Shown one piece after another: positions 1,319 to 45,504 of a stretch of 64,000 bases of DNA. The DNA comes from a virus (taxonomy: Duplodnaviria > Caudoviricetes), in IMG/VR virus record IMGVR_UViG_3300031413_000603, positions 1 to 64,000 of that record, one strand, 5' to 3'. The stretch's first letter is position 1, and each line of letters starts with the position of its first letter. Below the pieces are notes generated by a model, which made no database searches, had not been told where the DNA came from, and saw only the letters and a program-made list of their open reading frames with translations. Position numbers and translations under genes: made by a program.

Positions 1319-3209
1319 GGCTGCGCACTCCTAGAGCTTGGGTCAGCACGGGGAATTGGGACTGCAGGTTGACCGAGTCCACTATTCCCAGGCGCCACAC
1401 GTTGTTGTCATCCAGATAGCGCAGGACCTTGCCCGGCACGATGAGTCCGGTCTGGGGCAGCACTGGCATGGTCAGCTGGTCAGTGATCAGCATCCCGGTG
1501 TCTGACAGCTCATGACTGGCGCGCTGCATGACCGCGTCAATGGAGGTCAGCAGCGGGTGGGTCACCATGGGCTTGAGCAGGTCGCCAGCTGTGCCCCGGA
1601 TGCTGTAGTCGCCAAAGTGGCCCTGGTTCTCGCCGCTGACGAAAACCCGGTTGTAGGCGGGCTTGTAGTTCCACTCGCTATCGACCACCTCAAACGCACC
1701 AGGCTGCAGCTCAAAATCAGGCGTGAGCTGGTCCCAATCCCACCAGGCCTTGGGCCAGGTCGGCAGCACGCGTAGCATTTTCTCGGTGTTGTGCGGCTGG
1801 ATGTAGCCACCCACGGCCGAGGCAATCTCGGCGACGGCGCTCATGGACGTGCCCTGGTGCATCCAGACGCCGGCAGGCACGATCCAATCGGTGAGCTGCC
1901 AATCGAGCTGCCAGCCCAGGCTTGCCCCGTTGTTGATCGTGAGCGCGTCCAACATGAGCTGCTGGGCCGAAGCCGCCATGGCATTGGTATAGGTTGTCTC
2001 GGGCGCATGAGGCGCGGCCAGCAGCGCCGACTTGCCCCGGCCCGAGATCTTGACCACGCGCTCTGGAAACGCATTGCGCCAGCCCTTTTTCTCGGACTGC
2101 AGGCGAAAGTGGGTGCCATTGACCCGCACATCGAGCTCGACTGGCTCTCCATTGGCGCCAGGCGTGACGGCGTCGCCCACCGAATGGTGGAACTCGGCGG
2201 AAAACGTCCAGGTCCACGAGCTGCGGTCCAGCTGCATATTGATGCCTTGGCACGGCAGCGGGTCGCCCGACAAGCTATCGGCCCGGCGCACCTCAATTTC
2301 ATTGAACATGATGTAAGTCCTAAGAGAAGGGACCACTACCAGCGCAGGAGGCAGCTCGGTGCCCTTTTGCAGGCAAACAAAAACCAGCTTGCCCGTTCCA
2401 TCCCTGGCCTCGGAAAACACCAGGCGCGCCACAGTGGCCGGGTCGTAGCAAAGCTCTTTTTCAGGCGGGGCGATCACCGGGGGCAGCGACACGCCCGAGC
2501 GCGGCCAGGTGGCCTCCTGCCAGCGCGCATCCAGGCGCCTGGCCACCAGCCGGCCATCACCGAAGCTGGTGCGTAACTCGGTGCGGGTCGGGATGGCCTG
2601 TTGCCACCTGGCATCCATCAGGGCGCTCAGGTGCAGCGTCTCCTGCCAGGCCGAGGCCAGGCGGGTACTGACTGGCACGGCCTCTTGCCAGTCGGTGGCC
2701 AGGCGCGACTCCAGCCGGATGGTCTCCTGCCAGGCCAAAGCCAGGCGGGTGCTGAGCGGCACGGCGTTCTGCCAGGTGGTGGCTAGCCGGGCCTGCAGAC
2801 GCTCGGTCTCCTGCCAGACAGCATCGACCCGGGTGGCCAGCGGGATTGCTTCCCGCCAGCTGGTGGCCAGGCGCGCAGCGTGCGCTTCGCTGACCTGCCA
2901 GGCCGTGGCCAGGCGGGCCTCGACGGGCACAGCTTCCTGCCAGGAGAGCTCCAGGCCTACCCGGGTGCCTCTAAAAACCCCCGAGTCATACTGCAGGCCC
3001 ACATCCCCTTCCATCGCTGGAAAGTCGCCGTCCACCGCCATGTCGTAGGCAATGACCAGGGTGGTGACACCATCCATCTCGGGAAAGTCGCCATCCACCC
3101 CCAGCTCAGCACCAGGCGCCGCGCTCGAATCGCCCTCATAGCCGAACACCAGCCGGCCGCTGCCGTCTGCAGGCGCGGTGAAGAGCAGTTTCCCCTCGAT
3201 ATCGGCCAC
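1311..3209 (-). CDS. Tail/baseplate hub-type virion protein with a 14-aa Trp repeat tract
   Basis: 632 aa in the tail operon; 11 x 14-aa units; C-terminal half resembles siphoviral tail-tip proteins. Confidence 0.75.
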   Translation of the reverse strand: MADIEGKLLFTAPADGSGRLVFGYEGDSSAAPGAELGVDGDFPEMDGVTTLVIAYDMAVDGDFPAMEGDVGLQYDSGVFRGTRVGLELSWQEAVPVEARLATAWQVSEAHAARLATSWREAIPLATRVDAVWQETERLQARLATTWQNAVPLSTRLALAWQETIRLESRLATDWQEAVPVSTRLASAWQETLHLSALMDARWQQAIPTRTELRTSFGDGRLVARRLDARWQEATWPRSGVSLPPVIAPPEKELCYDPATVARLVFSEARDGTGKLVFVCLQKGTELPPALVVVPSLRTYIMFNEIEVRRADSLSGDPLPCQGINMQLDRSSWTWTFSAEFHHSVGDAVTPGANGEPVELDVRVNGTHFRLQSEKKGWRNAFPERVVKISGRGKSALLAAPHAPETTYTNAMAASAQQLMLDALTINNGASLGWQLDWQLTDWIVPAGVWMHQGTSMSAVAEIASAVGGYIQPHNTEKMLRVLPTWPKAWWDWDQLTPDFELQPGAFEVVDSEWNYKPAYNRVFVSGENQGHFGDYSIRGTAGDLLKPMVTHPLLTSIDAVMQRASHELSDTGMLITDQLTMPVLPQTGLIVPGKVLRYLDDNNVWRLGIVDSVNLQSQFPVLTQALGVRSHA

Positions 3210-3214
3210 AGCGC

Positions 3215-3604
3215 CTACCGGATGATGGCCGGCGTCTTGAGCAGCACTACGCCGCCCTCATACACCATGCCGTTGGCTGCGCCCGAGAGCCGAAACGGGC
3301 CCGCGCCATCGGCGGCCGTCACCGCGCCGCCATTGATCTTGTTGCCGTTGCCGTCGCACCACTCGCCCCAGGTGGGGGTGCCGGTGATCAAGGCCAGGTC
3401 ATTGGCGGCCGAGGTCTGCAGGCTGATGTAGCCCTCGGCCGTCAACACGCCGCAGGGCTTGGCCAGCGTGCGCACCGCCATCAACGTGCCATTGCGCTCG
3501 CTGTACAGCTTGATGCTGGACGGATTGGGGCCCGTGTCGGCCAGCGTGATGCTGGCCTGATTGCGCGCCTTGCGGTGTTCCACTGTGATCTCAAAGGTGG
3601 CCAT
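3215..3604 (-). CDS. Phage tail-tip protein (hypothetical)
   Basis: 129 aa, tightly packed in the tail operon. Confidence 0.7.
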   Translation of the reverse strand: MATFEITVEHRKARNQASITLADTGPNPSSIKLYSERNGTLMAVRTLAKPCGVLTAEGYISLQTSAANDLALITGTPTWGEWCDGNGNKINGGAVTAADGAGPFRLSGAANGMVYEGGVVLLKTPAIIR

Positions 3605-5217: not shown

Positions 5218-7137
5218 TTAAAGGGTGGATTCAGGCGCGCGGCCGACATCGCCGTACTGCACAAAAATGGAGTTGTCCTCGATGCCGGCTGGCGTGCCAG
5301 GCATCACGCAGCGCACACAGGCGATCTGCGCCTCTGCGCCCACGGTGTCGATAAAAACCGTGTTGTTGGGGATGAAGCCACCCGCGCCAAAGCCCAGCGC
5401 CTTGATGTGCACGTAAGGCGCGCCCGCTGCCCGGTTGAGGGGCTTGGCGTCGGTGTTGATGTTGAAGGTGCCGACCAGGCCGGACTTCTGGCCGTACATC
5501 TCATAGTTCTGGCTGTCCTTGAACCTGAGCGCCCAGCGCTGGCTGATGGCGCCCAGGTTGGTCACCTCGATGGCGTAAGCGTCGTGGTCATACTTTGCAG
5601 CTGCTGGCCCAATGGCTGGATCCAGGCCGTCGTACCAGGTCACCCCATCCCAGCTCTTTTGCGTGTAGACACGGGTCACCCGTGCATAGCGATCGCCCTG
5701 GCGCAGCGCGCTGCTGAATACCGCCCCTGCAGGGAAGGCATAGCCAATCGGCGTGGTGAAGTGCACCTCACCATTGATCAGCACCTTGGAGACCCGCAGA
5801 TAGACACTCACCCGGCCAATCACGCGCACCTGCGCGGGGTAGCCGGTCAAGTCGTTGAACGTGACGGTGCCGGCATCCAGGTCCGCCTCGAAGCCGGTGA
5901 AGATCTCCGCGCCATCCTCGCCCAGCACGTGGATATGGGACATGCGCTCATGGCCCAGGCTGTAGGTCATGCCAATGGTGGGCAAAAACGCCGTGCCACC
6001 ATACTCGGTGCCGATCCAGCCCGAATCGCCGCTGCGCACAAAAGGCACCAGGCCATCAGAGGGCAGCGCAGCCGGATCGAGGCCCGTCAGGTTGACATCG
6101 ACCGGCAGGTAGACATAGGTGACCGCGTTGTAGCGCAGCGTGGTCGGGTCGACGGGCCACGGCCGCCAGATCTTGCCCGCCTCGACCGCGCCGACGTCGC
6201 CCGCGCTGTACCACCACTCGGCCTTGTCCGCGTCTGTCAGCTCGGCGGCCAGGACGAAGTCGCCCGTCTGCAGGGCAACGCTGCCGCGTGCAAACACCAC
6301 CTTGCCGCGCATGTGCGGGCCGGTGATGTTGCCTTGGTTGTCGACGTTGGCGGTGAGCAGGTTGCCCTTGGTGTCGTTGACGGTCAGCACGAAGCCGCCA
6401 GGCCCGGCGCGCAGCGGCGCAGACTCGGTGTTGAAAAACAGGCTTGCCGTCGTCCACTGGCCCTTTTGCGTCCACAGCGATATCAGCTGGAAGTCGCCGG
6501 GCCCGGTGCCGCCCACCACGTAGTCGGTCATGAGGACAGTGCCGCCCGCGTAATCGATGTAGCCGCTGATGGTGCCCGGCTGGGTGTCGGTGCGCCCCCG
6601 GTAGATCACGCCCTCGAAGTCCACATAGGTGGTCGCCATCCAGCGGAACATGACCGAGCCGGCCACGATCCGGTCGGTGGTGAGCGGGCACAGGTCCAGC
6701 GTCACGGCGGGCATCACATAGCTCATGGTTTTGGACAGCGGCACGCCGGCGCCCGTGCGGTACCGCACCATGACCGAGGAGCTGGCCAGCATCTGCTCGC
6801 CCACCGAGGCGGTGCCGTAGGAGCCGCCCTTGCTGGAGTCCGAGCTGCTCGACCCTTCACCATCGGCCACCGTGCGCTCGAACTCGGCCGCGTCCTGGTG
6901 GTCGGACTTATAGCTCTCGGTCGACCTGGTGAAGTCCACCACCTTGATGTTGAGCTGCTTGCCGACATAGTTGACGTTGCCCAGGCCGGTCAGGAAATTG
7001 CCCAGCCCGTCGTCGGTAGCTTTGCTGATGGCCACGATGCGGCCGTCGTTGGTCGTGCCCGTCTCGGTCGAAAGCGTGGAGCTTTTCCCGGTGGTGGTCT
7101 TGACGGTGAACGGGAGTACTTTGGTTTGAATAGCCAT
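5218..7137 (-). CDS. Large virion tail structural protein, C-terminal part
   Basis: Gly/Thr-rich beta-type sequence; ATG at 7137 (MAIQTKVLP), 10 nt after the upstream stop. Confidence 0.72.
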   Translation of the reverse strand: MAIQTKVLPFTVKTTTGKSSTLSTETGTTNDGRIVAISKATDDGLGNFLTGLGNVNYVGKQLNIKVVDFTRSTESYKSDHQDAAEFERTVADGEGSSSSDSSKGGSYGTASVGEQMLASSSVMVRYRTGAGVPLSKTMSYVMPAVTLDLCPLTTDRIVAGSVMFRWMATTYVDFEGVIYRGRTDTQPGTISGYIDYAGGTVLMTDYVVGGTGPGDFQLISLWTQKGQWTTASLFFNTESAPLRAGPGGFVLTVNDTKGNLLTANVDNQGNITGPHMRGKVVFARGSVALQTGDFVLAAELTDADKAEWWYSAGDVGAVEAGKIWRPWPVDPTTLRYNAVTYVYLPVDVNLTGLDPAALPSDGLVPFVRSGDSGWIGTEYGGTAFLPTIGMTYSLGHERMSHIHVLGEDGAEIFTGFEADLDAGTVTFNDLTGYPAQVRVIGRVSVYLRVSKVLINGEVHFTTPIGYAFPAGAVFSSALRQGDRYARVTRVYTQKSWDGVTWYDGLDPAIGPAAAKYDHDAYAIEVTNLGAISQRWALRFKDSQNYEMYGQKSGLVGTFNINTDAKPLNRAAGAPYVHIKALGFGAGGFIPNNTVFIDTVGAEAQIACVRCVMPGTPAGIEDNSIFVQYGDVGRAPESTL

Positions 7138-12178: not shown

Positions 12179-12228
12179 ACTGTCGCGTTTTGAGCGCAAA
12201 TGAATAAGGCCAGCAAATGCTGGCCTTA
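12179..12228 (-). promoter_or_regulatory. Putative Mor/C-activated late promoter (tail operon)
   Basis: TAAGGCCAGCA-AA-TGCTGGCCTTA dyad + TTATTCATTTGC + GACAGT -10; same spacing as the 18.0 and 25.6 kb copies. Confidence 0.75.
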
Positions 12229-18020: not shown

Positions 18021-18067
18021 ACTGTGCCTGGCGAGGCGCAAATGAATAAGGCCAGCATGTGCTGGCC
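18021..18067 (-). promoter_or_regulatory. Putative Mor/C-activated late promoter (capsid operon, PI-like)
   Basis: GGCCAGCA-CA-TGCTGGCC dyad + TTATTCATTTGC + CACAGT -10. Confidence 0.75.
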
Positions 18068-25569: not shown

Positions 25570-25617
25570 ACTGTCGTTGCGCCGAGGCAAATAAATAAGG
25601 CCAGCATATGCTGGCCC
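25570..25617 (-). promoter_or_regulatory. Putative Mor/C-activated late promoter (lysis operon, Plys-like)
   Basis: GGCCAGCA-TA-TGCTGGCC dyad + TTATTTATTTGC + GACAGT -10, with ATG 7 nt downstream. Confidence 0.75.
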
Positions 25618-26134: not shown

Positions 26135-26833
26135 TCAATCAAAAGTAATACCACCCCAGCGCACACGGCCAAGTATTTCGAAGTCTCGACCTTCTTCGGT
26201 CACATCGATCTCGAACGATGCAAAGTCGGAGTTTGCGCTGCTGACATGGAACATCTTGTTTGGGAAACGTTGAATCATTTTTATAAGTAGAGCCCCATCG
26301 ATTCTTATTCCATGAATGCCTTCCGCACGCACATCAGTCGCCCTTCGGTCAAGCATGACCGTGTCCTTGGACTTCAAGTAGGGCTGCATGGATTTGCCCT
26401 CAACGGAAACTAGGCTCAGGTCGTTGTGATGGATATCCAGTTCTTGGCGAATGTATTTGACATCAAAAGGGCGCATCGCAATGACACTCTCAACGTCAGC
26501 AAAGAGACCATTGCCCGCTGATAGAGCGACATCGAAGTGCGGCACAAAGACGTAGTCGCCTTGCTCGATAGCTTTCGTATCGATTGGGACCTGAAGTGTC
26601 CTCATCTGGCCTGTGAGTAGCCATTCAGGTGTGCATTTGCCAATCTCTGCCATGCGCAAAAGTGTGAAGGCATCTGGAACGGTCAAGCCACGCTCGAACT
26701 TGCCAATGGTGTTGACGTGTAAGTCAAGTTGTCTGGCGAATTCATCACGCGAAATGCCGCTCCTGCACTCACGGATGCGGTCGCCCAAAGACGCCGCATA
26801 TGCGTCACGAATTTCTGTGCTGTTTTCCGTCAT
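26135..26833 (-). CDS. Prophage repressor, XRE HTH + S24 peptidase
   Basis: N-terminal HTH; SAG cleavage-type site, GKSM catalytic Ser; divergent from ner. Confidence 0.9.
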   Translation of the reverse strand: MTENSTEIRDAYAASLGDRIRECRSGISRDEFARQLDLHVNTIGKFERGLTVPDAFTLLRMAEIGKCTPEWLLTGQMRTLQVPIDTKAIEQGDYVFVPHFDVALSAGNGLFADVESVIAMRPFDVKYIRQELDIHHNDLSLVSVEGKSMQPYLKSKDTVMLDRRATDVRAEGIHGIRIDGALLIKMIQRFPNKMFHVSSANSDFASFEIDVTEEGRDFEILGRVRWGGITFD

Positions 26834-27019: not shown

Positions 27020-27307
27020 ATGAACCAAACAGATTGGCACCCAGCCGATGTGAAGGCTGCACTTGAAAAGAGGGGTGTAAGCCTGCGGAAATTGGCGCAT
27101 GAGCATGGCTACTCACACTTTCAGCGCGTTTTGTCTACGCATTGGTGGGCAGCTGAGCAAATAGTGGCTGCGGCGCTAGGCCTACCTGCAGATGAAATCT
27201 GGCCATCTCGCTATGCCATGGAGAGAACAAAGGCAAAGGCTCGCACGGTAAAGATTGCAGTCAGCCGCTCCGGTCGCATTCGCAAGCTCGGAGGGACCAA
27301 GGCATGA
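27020..27307 (+). CDS. ner: Ner-like DNA-binding protein
   Basis: DWHPADVKAALEKRG.SL..L...IWPSRY. Confidence 0.9.
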   Translation: MNQTDWHPADVKAALEKRGVSLRKLAHEHGYSHFQRVLSTHWWAAEQIVAAALGLPADEIWPSRYAMERTKAKARTVKIAVSRSGRIRKLGGTKA

Positions 27308-29523
27308 TCTGGCTTACCGCTCGTGAACTAGCAGGCCTGCCCGGCATGCCAAGCTCTGAACGTCGCACCCGAGATCGCCTAGATGAAATGGCTGTTGCAT
27401 CTCGTCAGCGCGAGGGCCGAGGTGGTGGTCTTGTCTATGACTGCTCTGCGCTTCCAGAAGATACCCGTGCCGCTATCGCGGCTCGCCAGATCACCGCAGC
27501 AGCAGCCGTTGCCTTGACTGTGGTCGACACACCTGCAGTGCAGTCCTTCGCACCTCCTGCAGCGCCTGAGAAACCCGGCACCTTAGTTCCTACTCCTGCG
27601 CCAGGAAGCCGCCAACCTAGCCAGGCAGACAAGGACGTTGCCGATGCACGTATGCGTCTTGTGACCATGGTGCAAGGCATGGTGACGCTGGGTGGCTTGC
27701 GCCGCGCATGCCAGCTGCTGGCAGCCCAGATCATGACTGGTGAAGCTGGCGGTGAAGTCCAATCGATTGCCCGCCTGGCCAACCAGCGTGCCCGGGGCGA
27801 CATGGTCAGCGCCCGCACCCTGGAGCGCTGGGTGGGGTTGCAGCGTGCTGATGGCTGGTGGGGCTTGTTGCCCGCCCAGGTAGAGAACGCCCGCATCCCA
27901 TACTTTGAGGATGACGTGGCTGCAGTGCTGGGCATGTACCACAGCCGGGATTCGCGCTTTCGCAAACTCAGCAATGCCGCCAAGGAAGTGACTCGCAGCA
28001 TGGAGCGTGACTTTGACTCTTGGCAGAGCCTGTACCACCGCGCCCGCCGCGCTCTGGACAAGATCGGCCAGTCAGCAGAGGCCAATGTGGCTTTGATCAA
28101 AGCTCGCCACACCGGCGCACAACGCGATGCCAAGCTGCCATTTCAGCGCCGCGACTCCAGCATGCTTGATCCGCTGGACGTATGGGTGATCGACGGCCAC
28201 ACCTTTAAAGCCAAGGTTCGCCATCCTGACCATGGCGCTCCTTTTGCGCCCGAGCTCACGCTGGTGCTCTCTGCCAGCTGCCGGATGATCATGGGCTGGT
28301 CTGTGAACTTGTCCGAGAACGTGATGGCGGTGGGCGATGCTTTGCGCCACGCCATCGGGCAGCACGGTGTGCCAGCCATTCTCTACGGTGACAACGGTGC
28401 AGGCGAAACCGCCAAGGCTATGGACTGCCCGATTGATGGATTCTGCGCACGCCTTGGTATTGAGCACCGCCTGGGCATCCCTGGCAAGCCCCAAGGCCAC
28501 GGCGTGATCGAGCGCAGCTGGCAGACCCATGCGATCAATGCAGCGCGCAGGTTCGGTAGCTACCAAGGCAGGGACGTAGACGGTGGAACATTCCGTAAAG
28601 TCGCGGCCGAGCTGGCGAAGGAGCAGCGCGCCATCAAGCGTGCATCAGAGACGGGCGAGGTGATCCAGCTCTCGCCCAAGGCTCCGACCTGGCAGCAGTT
28701 CCTGGATGGCATCGAAGTGATGGTGCAGCAGTACAACACTGAGCACCGTCACCGCAGTTTGCCAAAGCGCGCCGATGGCAAGCGCATGACGCCCGCAGAG
28801 GCCTTTGCAGCCAGCTTCAACGCTGAGCTGCAGATCAAGCCATCACAGCTCGAGCTGCGCATGCTCTTCATGCCCTCGATCATCCGCACTGCCAAGCGTG
28901 GCGAAGTGGTGTTCTTCAACCAGCACTACCAGGCGCCAGAGCTGATGCGCCGCGATATCGATGGCCGCGAGGTCAGCGTGCGCTACGACATCCACGACCC
29001 GAATTTTGTGATGGTCTACACCTTGGGCGGTGAGTTTGTGTGCGAGGCCCGCTGGAATGCCAACCGCAAAGACTTCTTCCCCAAGCCGGTCATCGAGATG
29101 GCACGCGAGAAGCGCGTGGGCGCGGCCATCAAGCGCCGCGAGCAGCAGATCGATACAGCATTGCGCGAGCTCGGCCCCACTGTCGATACGCGCACCCTCA
29201 CTGGTTTTTCCCTGCCGGAGCCGCGCAGCCGTTCGGTTGTGCCCACCACCTTGGAGATGCAGTTGCCTGCTCTTCACACACTCCCTGTTTCCTCCGAGGC
29301 AGCAGCTGAGCAATCAGCTGCAGGCAGGCCTTTCTTTGATACCCCGAGCGACCGATACGAGTGGCTGATGAACAACCGCGAGCACTGGCAAGCAGATGAC
29401 CAGGCATGGCTGAGCAACTACGTACAGACCGACAGCTTTGGCGATCTGAGGGAGTACTACGAAAACAGGGGGATGGGATGGAGCGGCGAGGAAAACGCCG
29501 GGGGTTTTAAGAGTGCCCTGTGA
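27304..29523 (+). CDS. Mu-type DDE transposase (A protein)
   Basis: N-terminal Mu HTH, WVIDGH, LYGDNG, G.IER catalytic motifs, Mu C-terminal domain. Confidence 0.95.
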   Translation: MIWLTARELAGLPGMPSSERRTRDRLDEMAVASRQREGRGGGLVYDCSALPEDTRAAIAARQITAAAAVALTVVDTPAVQSFAPPAAPEKPGTLVPTPAPGSRQPSQADKDVADARMRLVTMVQGMVTLGGLRRACQLLAAQIMTGEAGGEVQSIARLANQRARGDMVSARTLERWVGLQRADGWWGLLPAQVENARIPYFEDDVAAVLGMYHSRDSRFRKLSNAAKEVTRSMERDFDSWQSLYHRARRALDKIGQSAEANVALIKARHTGAQRDAKLPFQRRDSSMLDPLDVWVIDGHTFKAKVRHPDHGAPFAPELTLVLSASCRMIMGWSVNLSENVMAVGDALRHAIGQHGVPAILYGDNGAGETAKAMDCPIDGFCARLGIEHRLGIPGKPQGHGVIERSWQTHAINAARRFGSYQGRDVDGGTFRKVAAELAKEQRAIKRASETGEVIQLSPKAPTWQQFLDGIEVMVQQYNTEHRHRSLPKRADGKRMTPAEAFAASFNAELQIKPSQLELRMLFMPSIIRTAKRGEVVFFNQHYQAPELMRRDIDGREVSVRYDIHDPNFVMVYTLGGEFVCEARWNANRKDFFPKPVIEMAREKRVGAAIKRREQQIDTALRELGPTVDTRTLTGFSLPEPRSRSVVPTTLEMQLPALHTLPVSSEAAAEQSAAGRPFFDTPSDRYEWLMNNREHWQADDQAWLSNYVQTDSFGDLREYYENRGMGWSGEENAGGFKSAL

Positions 29524-36008: not shown

Positions 36009-36184
36009 CCACGGGCACCAACATCCACCGGTTCCCTGGTGCTGAACTCCCGGAGCAGACGCTTTCAGTGGAAAAGAAGTACCGGAGCTTCTGCCAGCAT
36101 GAAAAGATCACGCTGGATGACCACAGCCGTACAGTGCGCTGTGTTGCGAATAGCTATGTCCGACGCCAGCCACCTTCCCATTGA
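36005..36184 (+). CDS. 59-aa hypothetical protein, possibly truncated
   Basis: GGAGG SD, ATGA overlap; FCQHEKITLDDHSRTVRC then runs into the mor 5' end. Confidence 0.5.
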   Translation: MTTGTNIHRFPGAELPEQTLSVEKKYRSFCQHEKITLDDHSRTVRCVANSYVRRQPPSH

Positions 36185-36566
36185 GCTACTGCCGCCTCTG
36201 CTGCAGAACTTTGTGCGCCTGATTGGCCTGGCCCCCACCATGTCACTGGTGCAGGTATTTGGCGGGCGCAGAGTCTATTTCCCCAAGCAACCCACTCCCG
36301 AGCATCCTTTGGCCGCTATCGTCGGTCTGGAGAACCTTTTAAAGCTGAGCGAGGTATACGGTGGCTTGGAGCATTTCCAGCTTCCCAAGGCCGAGAGGGC
36401 GCTCCTCGCTGTCCGTAACTCCAGCATCGCAGCAGACTATGCTGCCCATAAAACGGCCCGTGATTTGGCTGTAGAGCACGGCCTCACGGAGGGGCAGATC
36501 GTCCGAATCGTAGCCGCCCAAGGTGTAACAGCACCATTGGATAGACGGCAGAAGGCACTCTTTTGA
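36156..36566 (+). CDS. mor: Mor/C-family late transcription activator
   Basis: LIG......LV..FGGRRVYFPK; RN..I; LAVEHGLTEGQI.RIV HTH. Confidence 0.9.
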   Translation: MSDASHLPIELLPPLLQNFVRLIGLAPTMSLVQVFGGRRVYFPKQPTPEHPLAAIVGLENLLKLSEVYGGLEHFQLPKAERALLAVRNSSIAADYAAHKTARDLAVEHGLTEGQIVRIVAAQGVTAPLDRRQKALF

Positions 36567-41634: not shown

Positions 41635-41693
41635 GAATATTGAGATTTCGTGGCGAAAACCTTGCCACCCTCTGCAAAAAGAGGCCAGGAATG

Positions 41694-41717
41694 AAAAAAC
41701 CGCCCAGAAGGCGGTTT
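41694..41717 (-). terminator. Intrinsic terminator downstream of the tRNA 3' remnant
   Basis: AAACCGCC-TTCTG-GGCGGTTT + TTT on the - strand. Confidence 0.75.
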
Positions 41718-41796
41718 GTTCAAAATAGAAACCTTGGAGAGGTTTCATACCAAATCCCTGTTATCCTGAAGTCTGGTTCTCTTCAGAGGGAAAATT

Positions 41797-41820
41797 TGGT
41801 AGGCGCGATTGGACTCGAAC
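41797..41820 (-). other. att site: duplicated 3' end of tRNA-Val (partial, not a full tRNA)
   Basis: Reverse complement GTTCGAGTCCAATCGCGCCTACCA = T-loop/T-stem, acceptor strand, discriminator A and CCA. Sequence beyond 41820 is not tRNA-like; TGTCCC/TGTCAC arm-like repeats at about 41905-41945. Confidence 0.85.
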
Positions 41821-41981
41821 TAATATAGCAGCCTAGCAGATACATGGCTTGAGAGTGAGGAGGCCTGCTCCTGACACCCTAGCACCCCCTGGGATACGCG
41901 CCAATGTCCCACGGATTTGTCCCCGGCTAGCGGGCCTCTGTCACCCAGCTAGGTGCTTCCGATCCTTCCCCTGCCTCCAGG

Positions 41982-43525: not shown

Positions 43526-43776
43526 TTCACACCCCCTAAAAGCATTGAAAATTAATTATGGAATTGAGTATAGGTCGAGCCCGCCCCCTCTTGGCCCTGA
43601 GACTGAAATCACATAGTTGTACTATTGCAACGCCCGCTTGACTTCGCTGCGCCAAGCTGCGGGGGGAAAGGGGGTAAGCTGAACTTACACCCCTAGGGCA
43701 GAATAATTTCTGGAATATTTTTCGCTGGAAATTTCATAGGGTTGAGGTCTTGGCCAACCTTGCAAAAACCACGATC

Positions 43777-43862
43777 TGTCAACCAACGAACCCTGCAAAT
43801 TTGGCGTTTTGTCAACCTCGCGCCTGCCTTTTGTCAACCTTAGGCAAGCGCATTGTCAACCT
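43777..43862 (+). repeat. Four helically phased TGTCAACC(T) direct repeats
   Basis: Starts at 43777, 43810, 43832, 43854 (spacing 33, 22, 22). Confidence 0.8.
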
Positions 43863-44129
43863 TCACCCCCAGAACTGCCCGTGCAATAGCTTCAGCCGAG
43901 ACGCCAGCGTTTCCGGGTCGTGCTGCATGTGCAGGATGGGTGTGGTGCCAATGCTTACATGCTCATACCAGATATGGAAGGCGCGGGCTTTGGGAAGCAT
44001 TTGGGCTGTATCCCTGATGGCCCCAGCGATGGAGCTGGCGGTAAAGCTGAGAGCTTCTGAATGCTCGTTCATGACCCGGGCCAGGTACTGACCGGGCACG
44101 CTTTTTTCAATGTGCAGACTCTGGATCAT
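43863..44129 (-). CDS. 88-aa hypothetical protein
   Basis: ATGA overlap with the upstream membrane protein gene. Confidence 0.65.
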   Translation of the reverse strand: MIQSLHIEKSVPGQYLARVMNEHSEALSFTASSIAGAIRDTAQMLPKARAFHIWYEHVSIGTTPILHMQHDPETLASRLKLLHGQFWG

Positions 44130-44416
44130 TTTTTCACTTCGGGGACGAATTGAATGGTGCCTATTTTCTCCGCCTCGATGTCGCCGGGCGTAGGCCGTAT
44201 CCAATGGATCCACAGCCCCTTCATCCAGGCCAGCGCGTACAGCACGCTTACTGCGAAGATCCCCCATTGCTCGGCCTTCCACGAGGCGTAGAACCAGAAC
44301 GGCTGGCCCAATATGCCGAAGATGCAGGCCCAGCGCCTGAAGCTCTCAGAACGAGCCTGCGACAGCCAGGCGGCAGCTGCACCTAACACCGCGATAGCAA
44401 CCTGATCGAATTGCAT
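44126..44416 (-). CDS. Small multi-pass membrane protein (GQPFW family)
   Basis: RRWACIFGILGQPFWFYASWKAEQWGIFA; homologue of 35763-36008. Confidence 0.75.
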   Translation of the reverse strand: MQFDQVAIAVLGAAAAWLSQARSESFRRWACIFGILGQPFWFYASWKAEQWGIFAVSVLYALAWMKGLWIHWIRPTPGDIEAEKIGTIQFVPEVKK

Positions 44417-44433
44417 GCGTTACCTCAAAACTA

Positions 44434-44449
44434 CTGTTTATACGTACAG
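44434..44449. promoter_or_regulatory. LexA (SOS) box
   Basis: CTGT-TTATACGT-ACAG, 17 nt upstream of the 44416 start. Confidence 0.78.
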
Positions 44450-44495
44450 CATACAGATGTGCCGATTGCACCCTTGACAAGACGGGATTTACAAG

Positions 44496-44800
44496 ATGGC
44501 GGACGACGCCCACTCCTGGAAAATTTTCCGGAAGTCGGTCGAGGATGTGGAAAATTTTCCACATCCTTATGAGCGCGTGGCAATTGGCGAGGCTATTGAG
44601 AAGGAATTGCAGGGACGCCAGTTGGCAACCCTGAAGCAGAACTCCGAGGTGGAAAATTTTCCACAACGGCACACACCAGAAGGCAAGACCCGCGACCTGG
44701 TAGCCAAGGCCACTGGGTGAAATGCGCATGAAGTCCGGGGTTGAGAACCCTCCGGAAAATTTTCCGGAGGGTAAGCTGGGACAGGTACGCGAGCAGGCAG
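44496..44800 (+). pseudogene. Fragments of ParB-like phage protein genes
   Basis: ERVAIGEAIE...VENFPQ...GKTRDLVAKATG and ENFPEGKLGQVREQA fragments in different frames. Confidence 0.45.
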
Positions 44801-45010
44801 ACAAGCTACACGGCTGAATTCTCAGCCATCTGAGATTGAGGATTGGATTTCAAATCTCACCCTCTGCCTCTGGGGTAGGTTCACCGTGGCCGCCCAATAG
44901 CACAGCTCAGTTTTGAGCCATGACAGGGCCTACCCAAAATTTGGGTAGGCCCAATCAGATTTGAAATCCGATTGGGTCAGCCGGCTCAATTTTGAGCCCG
45001 TTGATATCAA
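44518..45010. repeat. Dense array of about 11 palindromes (10-27 bp), mostly AT-centred
   Basis: Perfect 26-mers at 44542-44567 and 44747-44772; 27-mers at 44926-44952 and 44950-44976; others listed in findings. Confidence 0.9.
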
Positions 45011-45024
45011 TGGAGGATCTTGGG

Positions 45025-45387
45025 CTAGTGGCGCTTTGAAGCGATCCAAAGAACCGCGATGAACCAGAGCACCGATCCAATCACAAAGTCCTCAACGGTG
45101 GTCTTGCGATTGCTGGAAAGGATGGCGAAAGCTGCCCCGCCGAATGGTGAACAGAACAGCCCAACCATCACGACAAAGCTTCCAAAGTCGCTGTCGCCTG
45201 ACCGGCCACTGAGTCGGTTTATGAACTCGCCAAGAGCCCCAAGTCCGAACATCAGCCCAGCCATGACAGCAATGGCCAGGCCAACAACGATTAGTGAGCC
45301 CAAGCCGCCGCCCAGCCGCTCATTCGCAAAGGCAGGCAGCGCTGCTGAAGCGAGCAGGACTGCTGTAAATGATTTTGCTGGGCGCAT
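45025..45387 (-). CDS. Exported multi-pass membrane protein (moron-like)
   Basis: Signal peptide + about 3 TM; sits after the ejection protein gene. Confidence 0.65.
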   Translation of the reverse strand: MRPAKSFTAVLLASAALPAFANERLGGGLGSLIVVGLAIAVMAGLMFGLGALGEFINRLSGRSGDSDFGSFVVMVGLFCSPFGGAAFAILSSNRKTTVEDFVIGSVLWFIAVLWIASKRH

Positions 45388-45504
45388 GTGCCTACACCTC
45401 AAGACGGGCTTTAGATGGAGCGATCATAGCCGCAGAGCGTTCGGTGAGCTGGATGGCGAGCACTACAAAAGTTTTGTAGTGCAAGCGATCGGCTTGCCCG
45501 TGCC

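Follow-up and report, generated by a model that had tools for sequence, protein, structure and literature searches.

Here, we show by sequence comparison that positions 44518-44817 of the window (the whole 64,000-nt stretch that was analysed, from a 76,149-bp provirus record) form an ectopic cluster of pieces from at least three ParB-like sublineages, each centred on the palindrome core GGAAAATTTTCC. The cluster lies in a P22-like prophage that itself lacks any ParB-like gene. In intact genes of the donor family, a palindrome occupies a fixed place inside the coding sequence, and its covariation with the encoded protein indicates that it is very probably the protein's own parS-like recognition or loading site. 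What is new is a variant of the ParB-parS logic: an orphan phage family whose probable site lies within the gene, together with arrays of orphan sites in phages that lack the protein.

The palindrome array and its units

A preliminary description of this DNA had reported an array of 11 palindromes at 44518-45010, four of them with a common core. Reading of the sequence from 44200 to 45400 and a repeat finder both bear this out (11/11, each at the same coordinates). The array comprises the GGAAAATTTTCC core palindrome at 44518-44529; two 26-bp perfect palindromes at 44542-44567 and 44747-44772; a 16-bp palindrome at 44649-44664, whose arms match at 11 of 13 positions across 44644-44669; a 27-bp palindrome at 44926-44952; one with a single mismatch at 44950-44976; and further palindromes at 44812-44827, 44846-44856, 44905-44918, 44983-44998 and 45001-45010. 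Exact copies of GGAAAATTTTCC start at 44518, 44549, 44651 and 44754, four inside 250 bp, and the whole 76,149-bp record holds none beyond these. When up to one mismatch is allowed, the window contains 4 occurrences versus 0.07 expected, a count reached in 0 of 100 shuffles. The array is also the densest 500 bp of the record: 44501-45000 ranks first among 500-bp intervals for perfect palindromes with arms of at least 6 (8 versus a mean of 0.72), and the record's three longest perfect palindromes (arms of 13) all fall within it.

The peptides quoted for these units in the preliminary description are correct. That four units read ENFP is likewise true, but the 12-mer GGAAAATTTTCC encodes E-N-F-P in one frame on either strand, so the shared reading follows automatically from the DNA and is no independent evidence. 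No intact ParB gene spans the array, again as described earlier; the sole open frame is a 74-aa ORF at 44496-44720. ParB_N (PF02195) has no match in the 76-kb record, so the array consists of fragments, not of a gene. A blastn search of 44400-45030 against INPHARED phages gave no match, and a search of the window against Rfam at the gathering score and a tRNA scan returned nothing. CRISPR and integron readings were rejected, as there is neither a constant repeat nor an integron integrase. Plasmid and phage centromere arrays are iterated sites of one specificity beside the genes of their cognate proteins; here the arms and specificity classes differ and the cognate protein is absent.

Two of the units are bare palindromes. 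Unit A (44518-44534) has the GGAAAATTTTCC core with imperfect arms (left CTGG, right CCGG) and agrees with donors at 17 of 26 palindrome positions and at chance level in its flanks; because ParB homology is absent outside ~23 nt, we consider it palindrome-only. The same holds for unit B (44542-44567), the 26-bp perfect palindrome AGGATGTGGAAAATTTTCCACATCCT, which is of GTGG type with T at position 7. Its flanks are at chance (22/26 in the palindrome), and it is 96% identical over 26 nt to L104/L105, its donor type being that of L104, L105 and L135.

The other two units retain coding sequence. Piece C (44568-44717, plus strand) is the middle segment of a ParB-like gene, running from the end of ParB_N, '(S/Y)ERVAIGEAIEKELQGR', through the linker and into the first HTH helix, 'GKTRDLVAKATG'. 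It is 80% identical at the nucleotide level to the intact genes L073 and L078, and it carries the native 16-bp palindrome GTGGAAAATTTTCCAC at 44649-44664 unchanged (26/26). Compared with six-frame translations of the record, the profile of the ParB-like family matches this array fragment only (E = 6e-12, profile positions 92-139 of 243, at 44478-44717). Piece D (44719-44817, plus strand) comes from a second ParB-like sublineage, characterised by the motif 'KRMKSGVENPxENFPEG', and is 92% identical over 49 nt to L088. It reads 'RMKSGVENPPENFPEG', followed by a decayed 'GQVREQADKLHG' that stands for GQTRDLVAKATG. Its palindrome ACCCTCCGGAAAATTTTCCGGAGGGT (44747-44772) is of CCGG type, with C at position 7, and is perfect over 26 bp; the right flank is only ~64% identical to the donor type (manual reading, with one 6-nt gap).

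Comparison with intact genes thus shows that units B, C and D derive from three different sublineages of one orphan phage ParB-like family, B representing a third palindrome type, and the earlier proposal that the units map to distinct ParB-like genes holds. Pieces C and D, as well as fragments F1 and F3 of the related locus L103, have the partial colinear similarity, truncation and frame disruption typical of pseudogenes or gene remnants. Remnant status leaves the palindrome-only units A and B unexplained. The 74-aa ORF (P0001, plus strand) runs through units A, B and C, and from residue 24 on it matches the middle of 275-300-aa ParB_N + HTH proteins.

To the right of the four GGAAAATTTTCC units, just past the last late gene, lies a block of hairpins at 44812-45010. 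Its members are GGCTGAATTCTCAGCC; GATTTCAAATC and GATTTGAAATC, which are two copies of one core; GCTCAGTTTTGAGC and GGCTCAATTTTGAGCC, again two copies; the 27-bp GGGCCTACCCAAAATTTGGGTAGGCCC; and TTGATATCAA. Tracing against the fetched loci found no donor ParB genes for the seven palindromes of 44800-45010, so the claim that the array was built from fragments of ParB-like genes stands for four palindromes and not for these seven. Two weak leads emerged: an early gene of L074 contains GCTCAATTTTGAGC, and in L074-L077 a 16-bp palindrome in the gene that follows ParB encloses TTGATATCAA. The stretch 44800-45010 may be a cluster of transcript-end hairpins, or it may hold more orphan sites, those of other proteins.

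The gene-internal palindrome of intact ParB-like genes

Members of the donor family are 275-300 aa long and combine a ParB_N domain, with a GERRxRA motif, and an HTH. PF02195 is present in 120 of the 120 homologues listed, GERRLRA (the GxxR nucleotide-binding motif) and ENEFRKD are seen in the sequences, and the best solved relatives are Spo0J/ParB. Intact genes occur in early operons of lambdoid and P22-like phages, in the interval from cro to the replication genes, in Comamonadaceae-type hosts; named hosts include Comamonas, Alicycliphilus, Thiobacillus and Stutzerimonas. No ParA-type Pfam family was found beside the intact genes in seven loci. Some members (P0064, P0078-P0080 and others) are fused to Dam (PF05869) or N6_N4 methyltransferase (PF01555) domains, which echoes the ParB-methyltransferase fusions noted for prophages.

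The preliminary description had supposed that phage ParB-like genes carry a palindrome inside their coding sequence, and intact genes confirm it. Each has one perfect palindrome of 16-28 bp at a fixed position in the linker (codons 114-121), and in 14 of 20 intact genes this is the longest perfect palindrome of the gene. The arms measure 8-13 nt in close family members; distant members have another core (GCAATTGC, CCAATTGG) at the same place in the gene. For genes with arms of at least 7 nt, shuffling of synonymous codons reaches the observed palindrome length with a frequency of 0.000-0.08 each. In each of the ten phage records with an intact gene, a single GGAAAATTTTCC is present (up to one mismatch allowed), namely the gene-internal one. 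These genes thus show what is expected of a parS-like site: a palindrome of ~16 bp or more, unique or in few copies per replicon, and linked to parB.

What is conserved at this position can be read from the variation among phages. The arms vary from phage to phage yet stay symmetric (ACCCT-CA-GG, ACCCT-GT-GG and ACCCT-CC-GG, with their exact complements), and this symmetry forces the flanking residues to be V...Q/P/H or P...E/G/D/A. Moreover, the 24-bp CAAGCCGGAAAATTTTCCGGCTTG is translated as KPENFPAC in L081 and as QAGKFSGL in L129, a prophage gene of Comamonas odontotermitis, and other family members read GKNS, GNFS or EKIP at the palindrome. The decisive point to be drawn from these sequences is that the DNA of the palindrome, not the peptide, is what is conserved.

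A second line of evidence comes from covariation between DNA and protein. Position 7 of the half-site is the middle base of the codon before ENFP, and its partner is the pre-HTH residue, the one directly ahead of the 'TRD' with which the first HTH helix starts. Among 95 homologues, C7 (codons for P and T) goes with D or E, A7 (K and Q) with Q, and T7 (V) with K or R, with zero exceptions in the main classes. On a tree built with the linker masked, phylogenetically independent contrasts are concordant throughout (15-17 of 15-17, p = 3-6e-5). The pre-HTH residue accounts for 1.47 bits of mutual information with position 7, out of 1.54, versus 0.01-0.03 bits for the polymorphic columns 4 and 8 residues further on. 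These two columns are nearer to the pre-HTH residue than the palindrome is, and this neighbouring-column control rules out block linkage or recombination as the cause of the coupling. The pairings seen are the acid-cytosine and glutamine-adenine ones familiar from protein-DNA contacts. Because the DNA is conserved across reading frames and base pair 7 covaries with the pre-HTH residue, the palindrome is very probably the protein's own parS-like site, and the earlier suggestion to this effect is strengthened.

Two near-complete phages, G003 (IMGVR_UViG_3300033518_000307) and G004 (3300000236_000001), have 6 and 14 dispersed GGAAAATTTTCC sites of GTGG type, often clustered 40-60 bp apart in a layout that looks KorB-like. 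Each encodes a 290-aa ParB_N + HTH protein, a distant homologue (28% identity) that lacks the linker insert, and both proteins have K or R at the position equivalent to the pre-HTH residue. This agreement corroborates the position-7 rule weakly, since five other phage records with paired GGAAAATTTTCC cores gave no match to ParB_N.

Lin and Grossman reportedly located parS within the parB/spo0J gene of Bacillus subtilis in 1998. Like spo0J/parS of that organism and chromosomal ParB-parS in general, the present family combines a ParB-family protein, with GxxR CTP motif and HTH, and a 16-bp palindromic loading site, here a predicted one, in its own coding sequence. Unlike it, the protein is a phage orphan without ParA, the site is single in each genome and fixed in the interdomain linker, the core is GGAAAATTTTCC, and the arms are symmetric out to 26-28 bp and vary by phage. 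In KorB-OB of RK2 and in ParB-parS of P1 and P7, specificity between close relatives comes down to one or two base pairs matched to single residues. These palindromic operators resemble the pairing of position 7 with the pre-HTH residue described here; however, their sites lie between genes and are used by the very element that makes the protein, whereas the sites of the array lie in a phage without it.

Prophages and other mobile elements are rich in orphan ParB-like CTP switches, most of which, to our knowledge, have no known DNA site. For one large family, the present analysis supplies a probable site, inside the gene itself; a testable rule of one residue and one base pair at position 7 (D/E-C, Q-A, K/R-T); and natural arrays of orphan sites in phages that lack the protein. 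In the literature searched, we found no description of this family's palindromic site, and a 2025 survey of the fold lists prophage orphan ParB-likes as uncharacterised (PMC12704722). The closest parallels include BisD, a ParB-like protein of ICEclc that loads at palindromes inside genes and slides for tens of kb (PMC12409273). BisD/bisS likewise pairs an orphan ParB-like CTP clamp of a mobile element with long palindromes inside genes; unlike the donor family, BisD has an extra activator domain and a partner, BisC, and the bisS sites are in inrR and ssb, not in bisD (PMC12409273). No orphan bisS arrays have been described in other elements.

Genomic setting and versions of the locus

The record holds two prophages. 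Window positions 1 to ~37 kb (1-37000) contain a transposable B3/Mu-like prophage, adjoining the P22-like one, with a repressor (26135-26833), a transposase (27304-29523), a Mor-like activator (36039-36566) and head and tail genes on the minus strand. Within it, three palindromes at 12205-12228, 18050-18067 and 25599-25616 share GGCCAGCA-NN-TGCTGGCC; these could be terminators or sites of a Mu-like prophage regulator. Between the two prophages are lipocalin, MgtC, CsbD and beta-lactamase-family genes (gene calls from the identical contig L064).

The P22-like temperate prophage extends from ~41.8 kb to past the end of the record. Its probable attL is a ~134-bp repeat at 41690-41823, within which 24 nt (41797-41820) duplicate the 3′ end of tRNA-Val; in the related prophage G001, a complete tRNA-Val(GAC) is present just beyond the right prophage end. 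A tyrosine integrase is encoded at record positions 74974-76149. Also encoded are a CI-like S24 repressor and a replication module of an HTH_36 initiator-like protein, a DnaC-like protein and DnaB. The structural and other genes include those for a portal of P22 type, an adaptor of SU10 type, an LPD39 protein of 2277 aa and, finally, a 125-aa membrane protein. Between the 125-aa and LPD39 genes is a further 23-bp palindrome, GCACTACAAAAGTTTTGTAGTGC (45460-45482), with GC arms and an A/T centre like the array units.

Given the position of attL, the array lies ~2.7 kb inside this prophage. It sits between the last late gene and two genes for small membrane proteins (96 and 88 aa), in the hypervariable arm that runs from attL to the last late gene, ~20 kb from the usual position of the ParB-like gene. 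To its left is the 96-aa gene, of moron type (44126-44416, minus strand, phrog_22312); to its right is the 125-aa gene (45025-45402, minus strand, 120 aa by another call), the last of the late operon. A LexA-box-like site of the form CTGT-N8-ACAG, CTGTTTATACGTACAG (44434-44449), lies upstream of the 96-aa gene, at a distance of 18 bp, and is separated by 47 bp from the 74-aa ORF. L103 has CTGTATGAACATACAG at the equivalent place, and this conservation suggests that the prophage's membrane morons are probably SOS-regulated.

ParB_N occurs in neither prophage, and no ParA was found among the scanned ORFs of the array-bearing one. Since this prophage encodes neither protein, the suggestion in the preliminary description that the array might serve as a centromere for the excised circle is unlikely to be correct. 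Two simple origins were also considered and rejected. In-situ decay of the prophage's own ParB gene is ruled out by the location of the array at the far end of the late operon; the prophage's cro-to-replication interval, where relatives usually have the gene, contains no ParB-like gene. Insertion into a ParB gene, with att scars left behind, is ruled out as well, attL being a tRNA-Val fragment 2.7 kb away.

In the collections searched, the locus exists in three versions: that of the window strain, that of G001 and that of L103/L028. G001, which is ~89% identical around the locus, lacks 44357-44900 and 43693-44191. The whole array is lost there, as is the start of the neighbouring gene; the array is therefore dispensable for the phage. 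In L103/L028, the membrane gene, LexA box, unit D and hairpin block are all retained, with a different gene beside the block. To the left of unit D are other units, four by count; they include a long fragment that carries ACCCTGTGGAAAATTTTCCACAGGGT, a bare palindrome, CAAGGTGGAAAAAATTCCACCTTG, that matches the site of the GKNS-type gene L132 exactly, and GGGTCAGGAAAATTTTCCTTACCC of A7 type. The specificity classes are accordingly T7 and C7 in the window and T7, A7 and C7 in L103, so that sites of different donor types are indeed found at this locus, as had been supposed, and its content differs among relatives. Over the two arrays, three of eight units are bare palindromes (window A, window B and L103 P2); the remaining units keep 22-26 of 26 palindrome positions, and their flanks are frameshifted, diverged or gone.

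Further relatives were sought in several ways. A search with anchor genes found no others in genome or metagenome contigs, only two protein relatives, and a 30-mer of the hairpin block retrieved the L028/L103 phage again and nothing else. Paired cores 70-100 nt apart were present at 18 loci in 185,579 species genomes, 0 of them with ParB similarity; these are unrelated repeat systems. Other core spacings in viral contigs led to operator-like sites of other phages, without ParB_N.

Possible roles of the array, and arrays elsewhere

Our preferred reading, to which we would give not far from an even chance, is that the palindromes of the array are kept for a putative trans action on the ParB-like CTP clamps of other phages. 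The targets would be clamps of phages that enter the cell or co-reside in it. ParB loading sites act catalytically; hence, a small number of chromosomal sites with different specificities could direct the loading of rival clamps to the wrong DNA. The array would then be a decoy or sink, akin to the sponge put forward in the preliminary description, or a tripwire beside the SOS-box membrane genes, and its units would have been acquired by recombination with the ParB genes of such phages. This proposal is favoured by the presence of bare-palindrome units, the undecayed state of the palindromes and the several specificities represented, and from the fact that phages with the protein never carry extra sites, taken with the catalytic nature of loading sites. 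Against it, the array was lost in G001, the locus belongs to a hypervariable arm prone to junk and exists in three versions, and the core GGAAAATTTTCC is not exclusive to ParB phages. The perfect palindromes could also stay 'fresh' without selection in the array if ParB genes that enter the cell recombined with it again and again, and any benefit of diverting intact orphan ParB-like proteins is conjecture.

Extra copies of a centromere (incB of P1, incD of F) destabilise the cognate plasmid, which is known as partition-mediated incompatibility. The array is similar in that copies of ParB sites are orphaned and would act in trans on another replicon. Incompatibility, by contrast, is a laboratory phenomenon of ParABS plasmids, whereas here ParA is absent, the phages are integrative and there are several specificities. 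Orphan arrays raise the possibility that phages compete via each other's cis-acting sites. A more elaborate version is doubtful: the array as a small multi-specificity library of catalytic loading sites kept by the resident prophage, at which rival clamps would close on the lysogen chromosome and not at the one gene-internal site of the rival, starving the rival or, by sliding into the SOS-box promoter, inducing the membrane proteins. Were it true, it would constitute a principle of defence or sensing built on stolen cis-sites and not on a protein.

The strongest rival, to which we assign rather less than an even chance, is that the array is non-functional recombination debris. The variable arm would have recombined repeatedly with ParB-like genes of co-infecting phages, with the core and hairpins as joints; fragments would end at or centre on palindromes for mechanistic reasons, and the cell would make no use of the array. 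The region is hypervariable, with kb-scale indels among relatives, the relatives are few and one of them, G001, has no array, and the coding remnants are frameshifted and truncated, all of which agrees with debris. Divergence from the donor type is very unequal between the left and right flanks of piece D, as expected if exchange endpoints fell in the palindrome. Remnants of the same ParB-like gene segment are, furthermore, common in metagenomes, and often stand beside GC-rich hairpin repeats that resemble sites of illegitimate recombination; some are bracketed by such repeats. The array is comparable to lambda b-region-type remnants and morons beside att in its position, indel turnover and truncated, frameshifted coding pieces; unlike these, its pieces all come from one ~150-bp segment of one gene family and several are bare palindromes. 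For three bare units of 23-27 nt from different donor types, the debris explanation needs palindrome-centred copying, which is unproven. It also has to contend with palindromes as perfect in the array as in intact genes, and with extra copies never occurring in phages that have an intact gene. Even if the array is debris, the palindrome would still be marked as a recombination joint that shapes the mosaicism of these phages.

We regard it as improbable that the array is a cis element of the resident prophage, either a multi-hairpin transcript end of the late operon (terminator or 3′ stabiliser) or a packaging, partition or operator site. The region does start directly behind the last late gene, and 44795-45030 is predicted to fold much more strongly than shuffled versions of it, on either strand (z = -6.0 and -5.3). 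In L103, conservation of unit D and the hairpin block reaches 96% (over 44732-45027) despite the different adjoining gene. High foldability is automatic for palindromes, however, and terminator-like sites are no more frequent than chance (2 versus 1.8 expected, neither convincing, with U-tracts absent). G001 shows no compensatory changes that would maintain the hairpins, and the record encodes no ParB, ParA or matching HTH protein. Such a role would fit 44800-45010 better than the ENFP units. Least probable is that the 74-aa ORF is a real small gene, such as a truncated ParB piece that interferes with full-length ParB-like proteins: it has an ATG-started open frame identical in five assemblies and a TTGACA hexamer 16 nt upstream, but the assemblies are all of one strain (100% identical across 16 kb), neither a -10 box nor a ribosome-binding site is recognisable, the product would contain only the last ParB_N helix, the linker and one HTH helix and matches nothing in PHROG or Pfam, and the L103 equivalent has stops and frameshifts, so that it is probably a fortuitous frame across the remnant.

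Several palindrome arrays elsewhere may be mentioned alongside that of the window. In L125 (IMGVR_UViG_3300047160_022945), two 24-bp perfect palindromes, ACTTGAGGAAAATTTTCCTCAAGT (5331-5354) and ACTTGGGGAAAATTTTCCCCAAGT (5437-5460), lie 106 bp apart inside what appears by eye to be a terminase large-subunit gene, in different frames (ENFP and GKFS); this 10.7-kb record gave no match to ParB_N. L104 and L105 (IMGVR_UViG_3300010348_000634 and 3300025597_000330) have an assorted palindrome array at 2600-3300, immediately upstream of an apparent head gene (by eye). It contains three copies of the hairpin CCCCCACGGCTGAGGGG, which alternate with GTCAATTAATTGAC and AAAATGACCGGTTGACCGGTCATTTT; GATCAAATTGATC lies in a linker-like stretch, 'QLDQIDP...TAEKLAAEHGVS', and GTGGAAAATTTTCCAC in a ParB fragment. 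At 400-740 of L135, a Logan contig (SRR20822881), three copies of the 24-nt repeat CCTCCCCGCGCGCGAGGGCAGACC bracket two elements in a cassette-like arrangement: a degenerate palindrome unit of 36 nt, and a ParB fragment of 216 nt that contains a perfect 28-bp palindrome. Finally, contigs of uncultured bacteria and Verrucomicrobiales MAGs (L109, L113-L115, L119 and L121) have arrays in which copies of GGAAAATTTTCC are spaced by ~41 and 82 bp. The flanks vary, ParB similarity is absent, and such an array may be a centromere or a set of iterons that belongs to an unrelated element.
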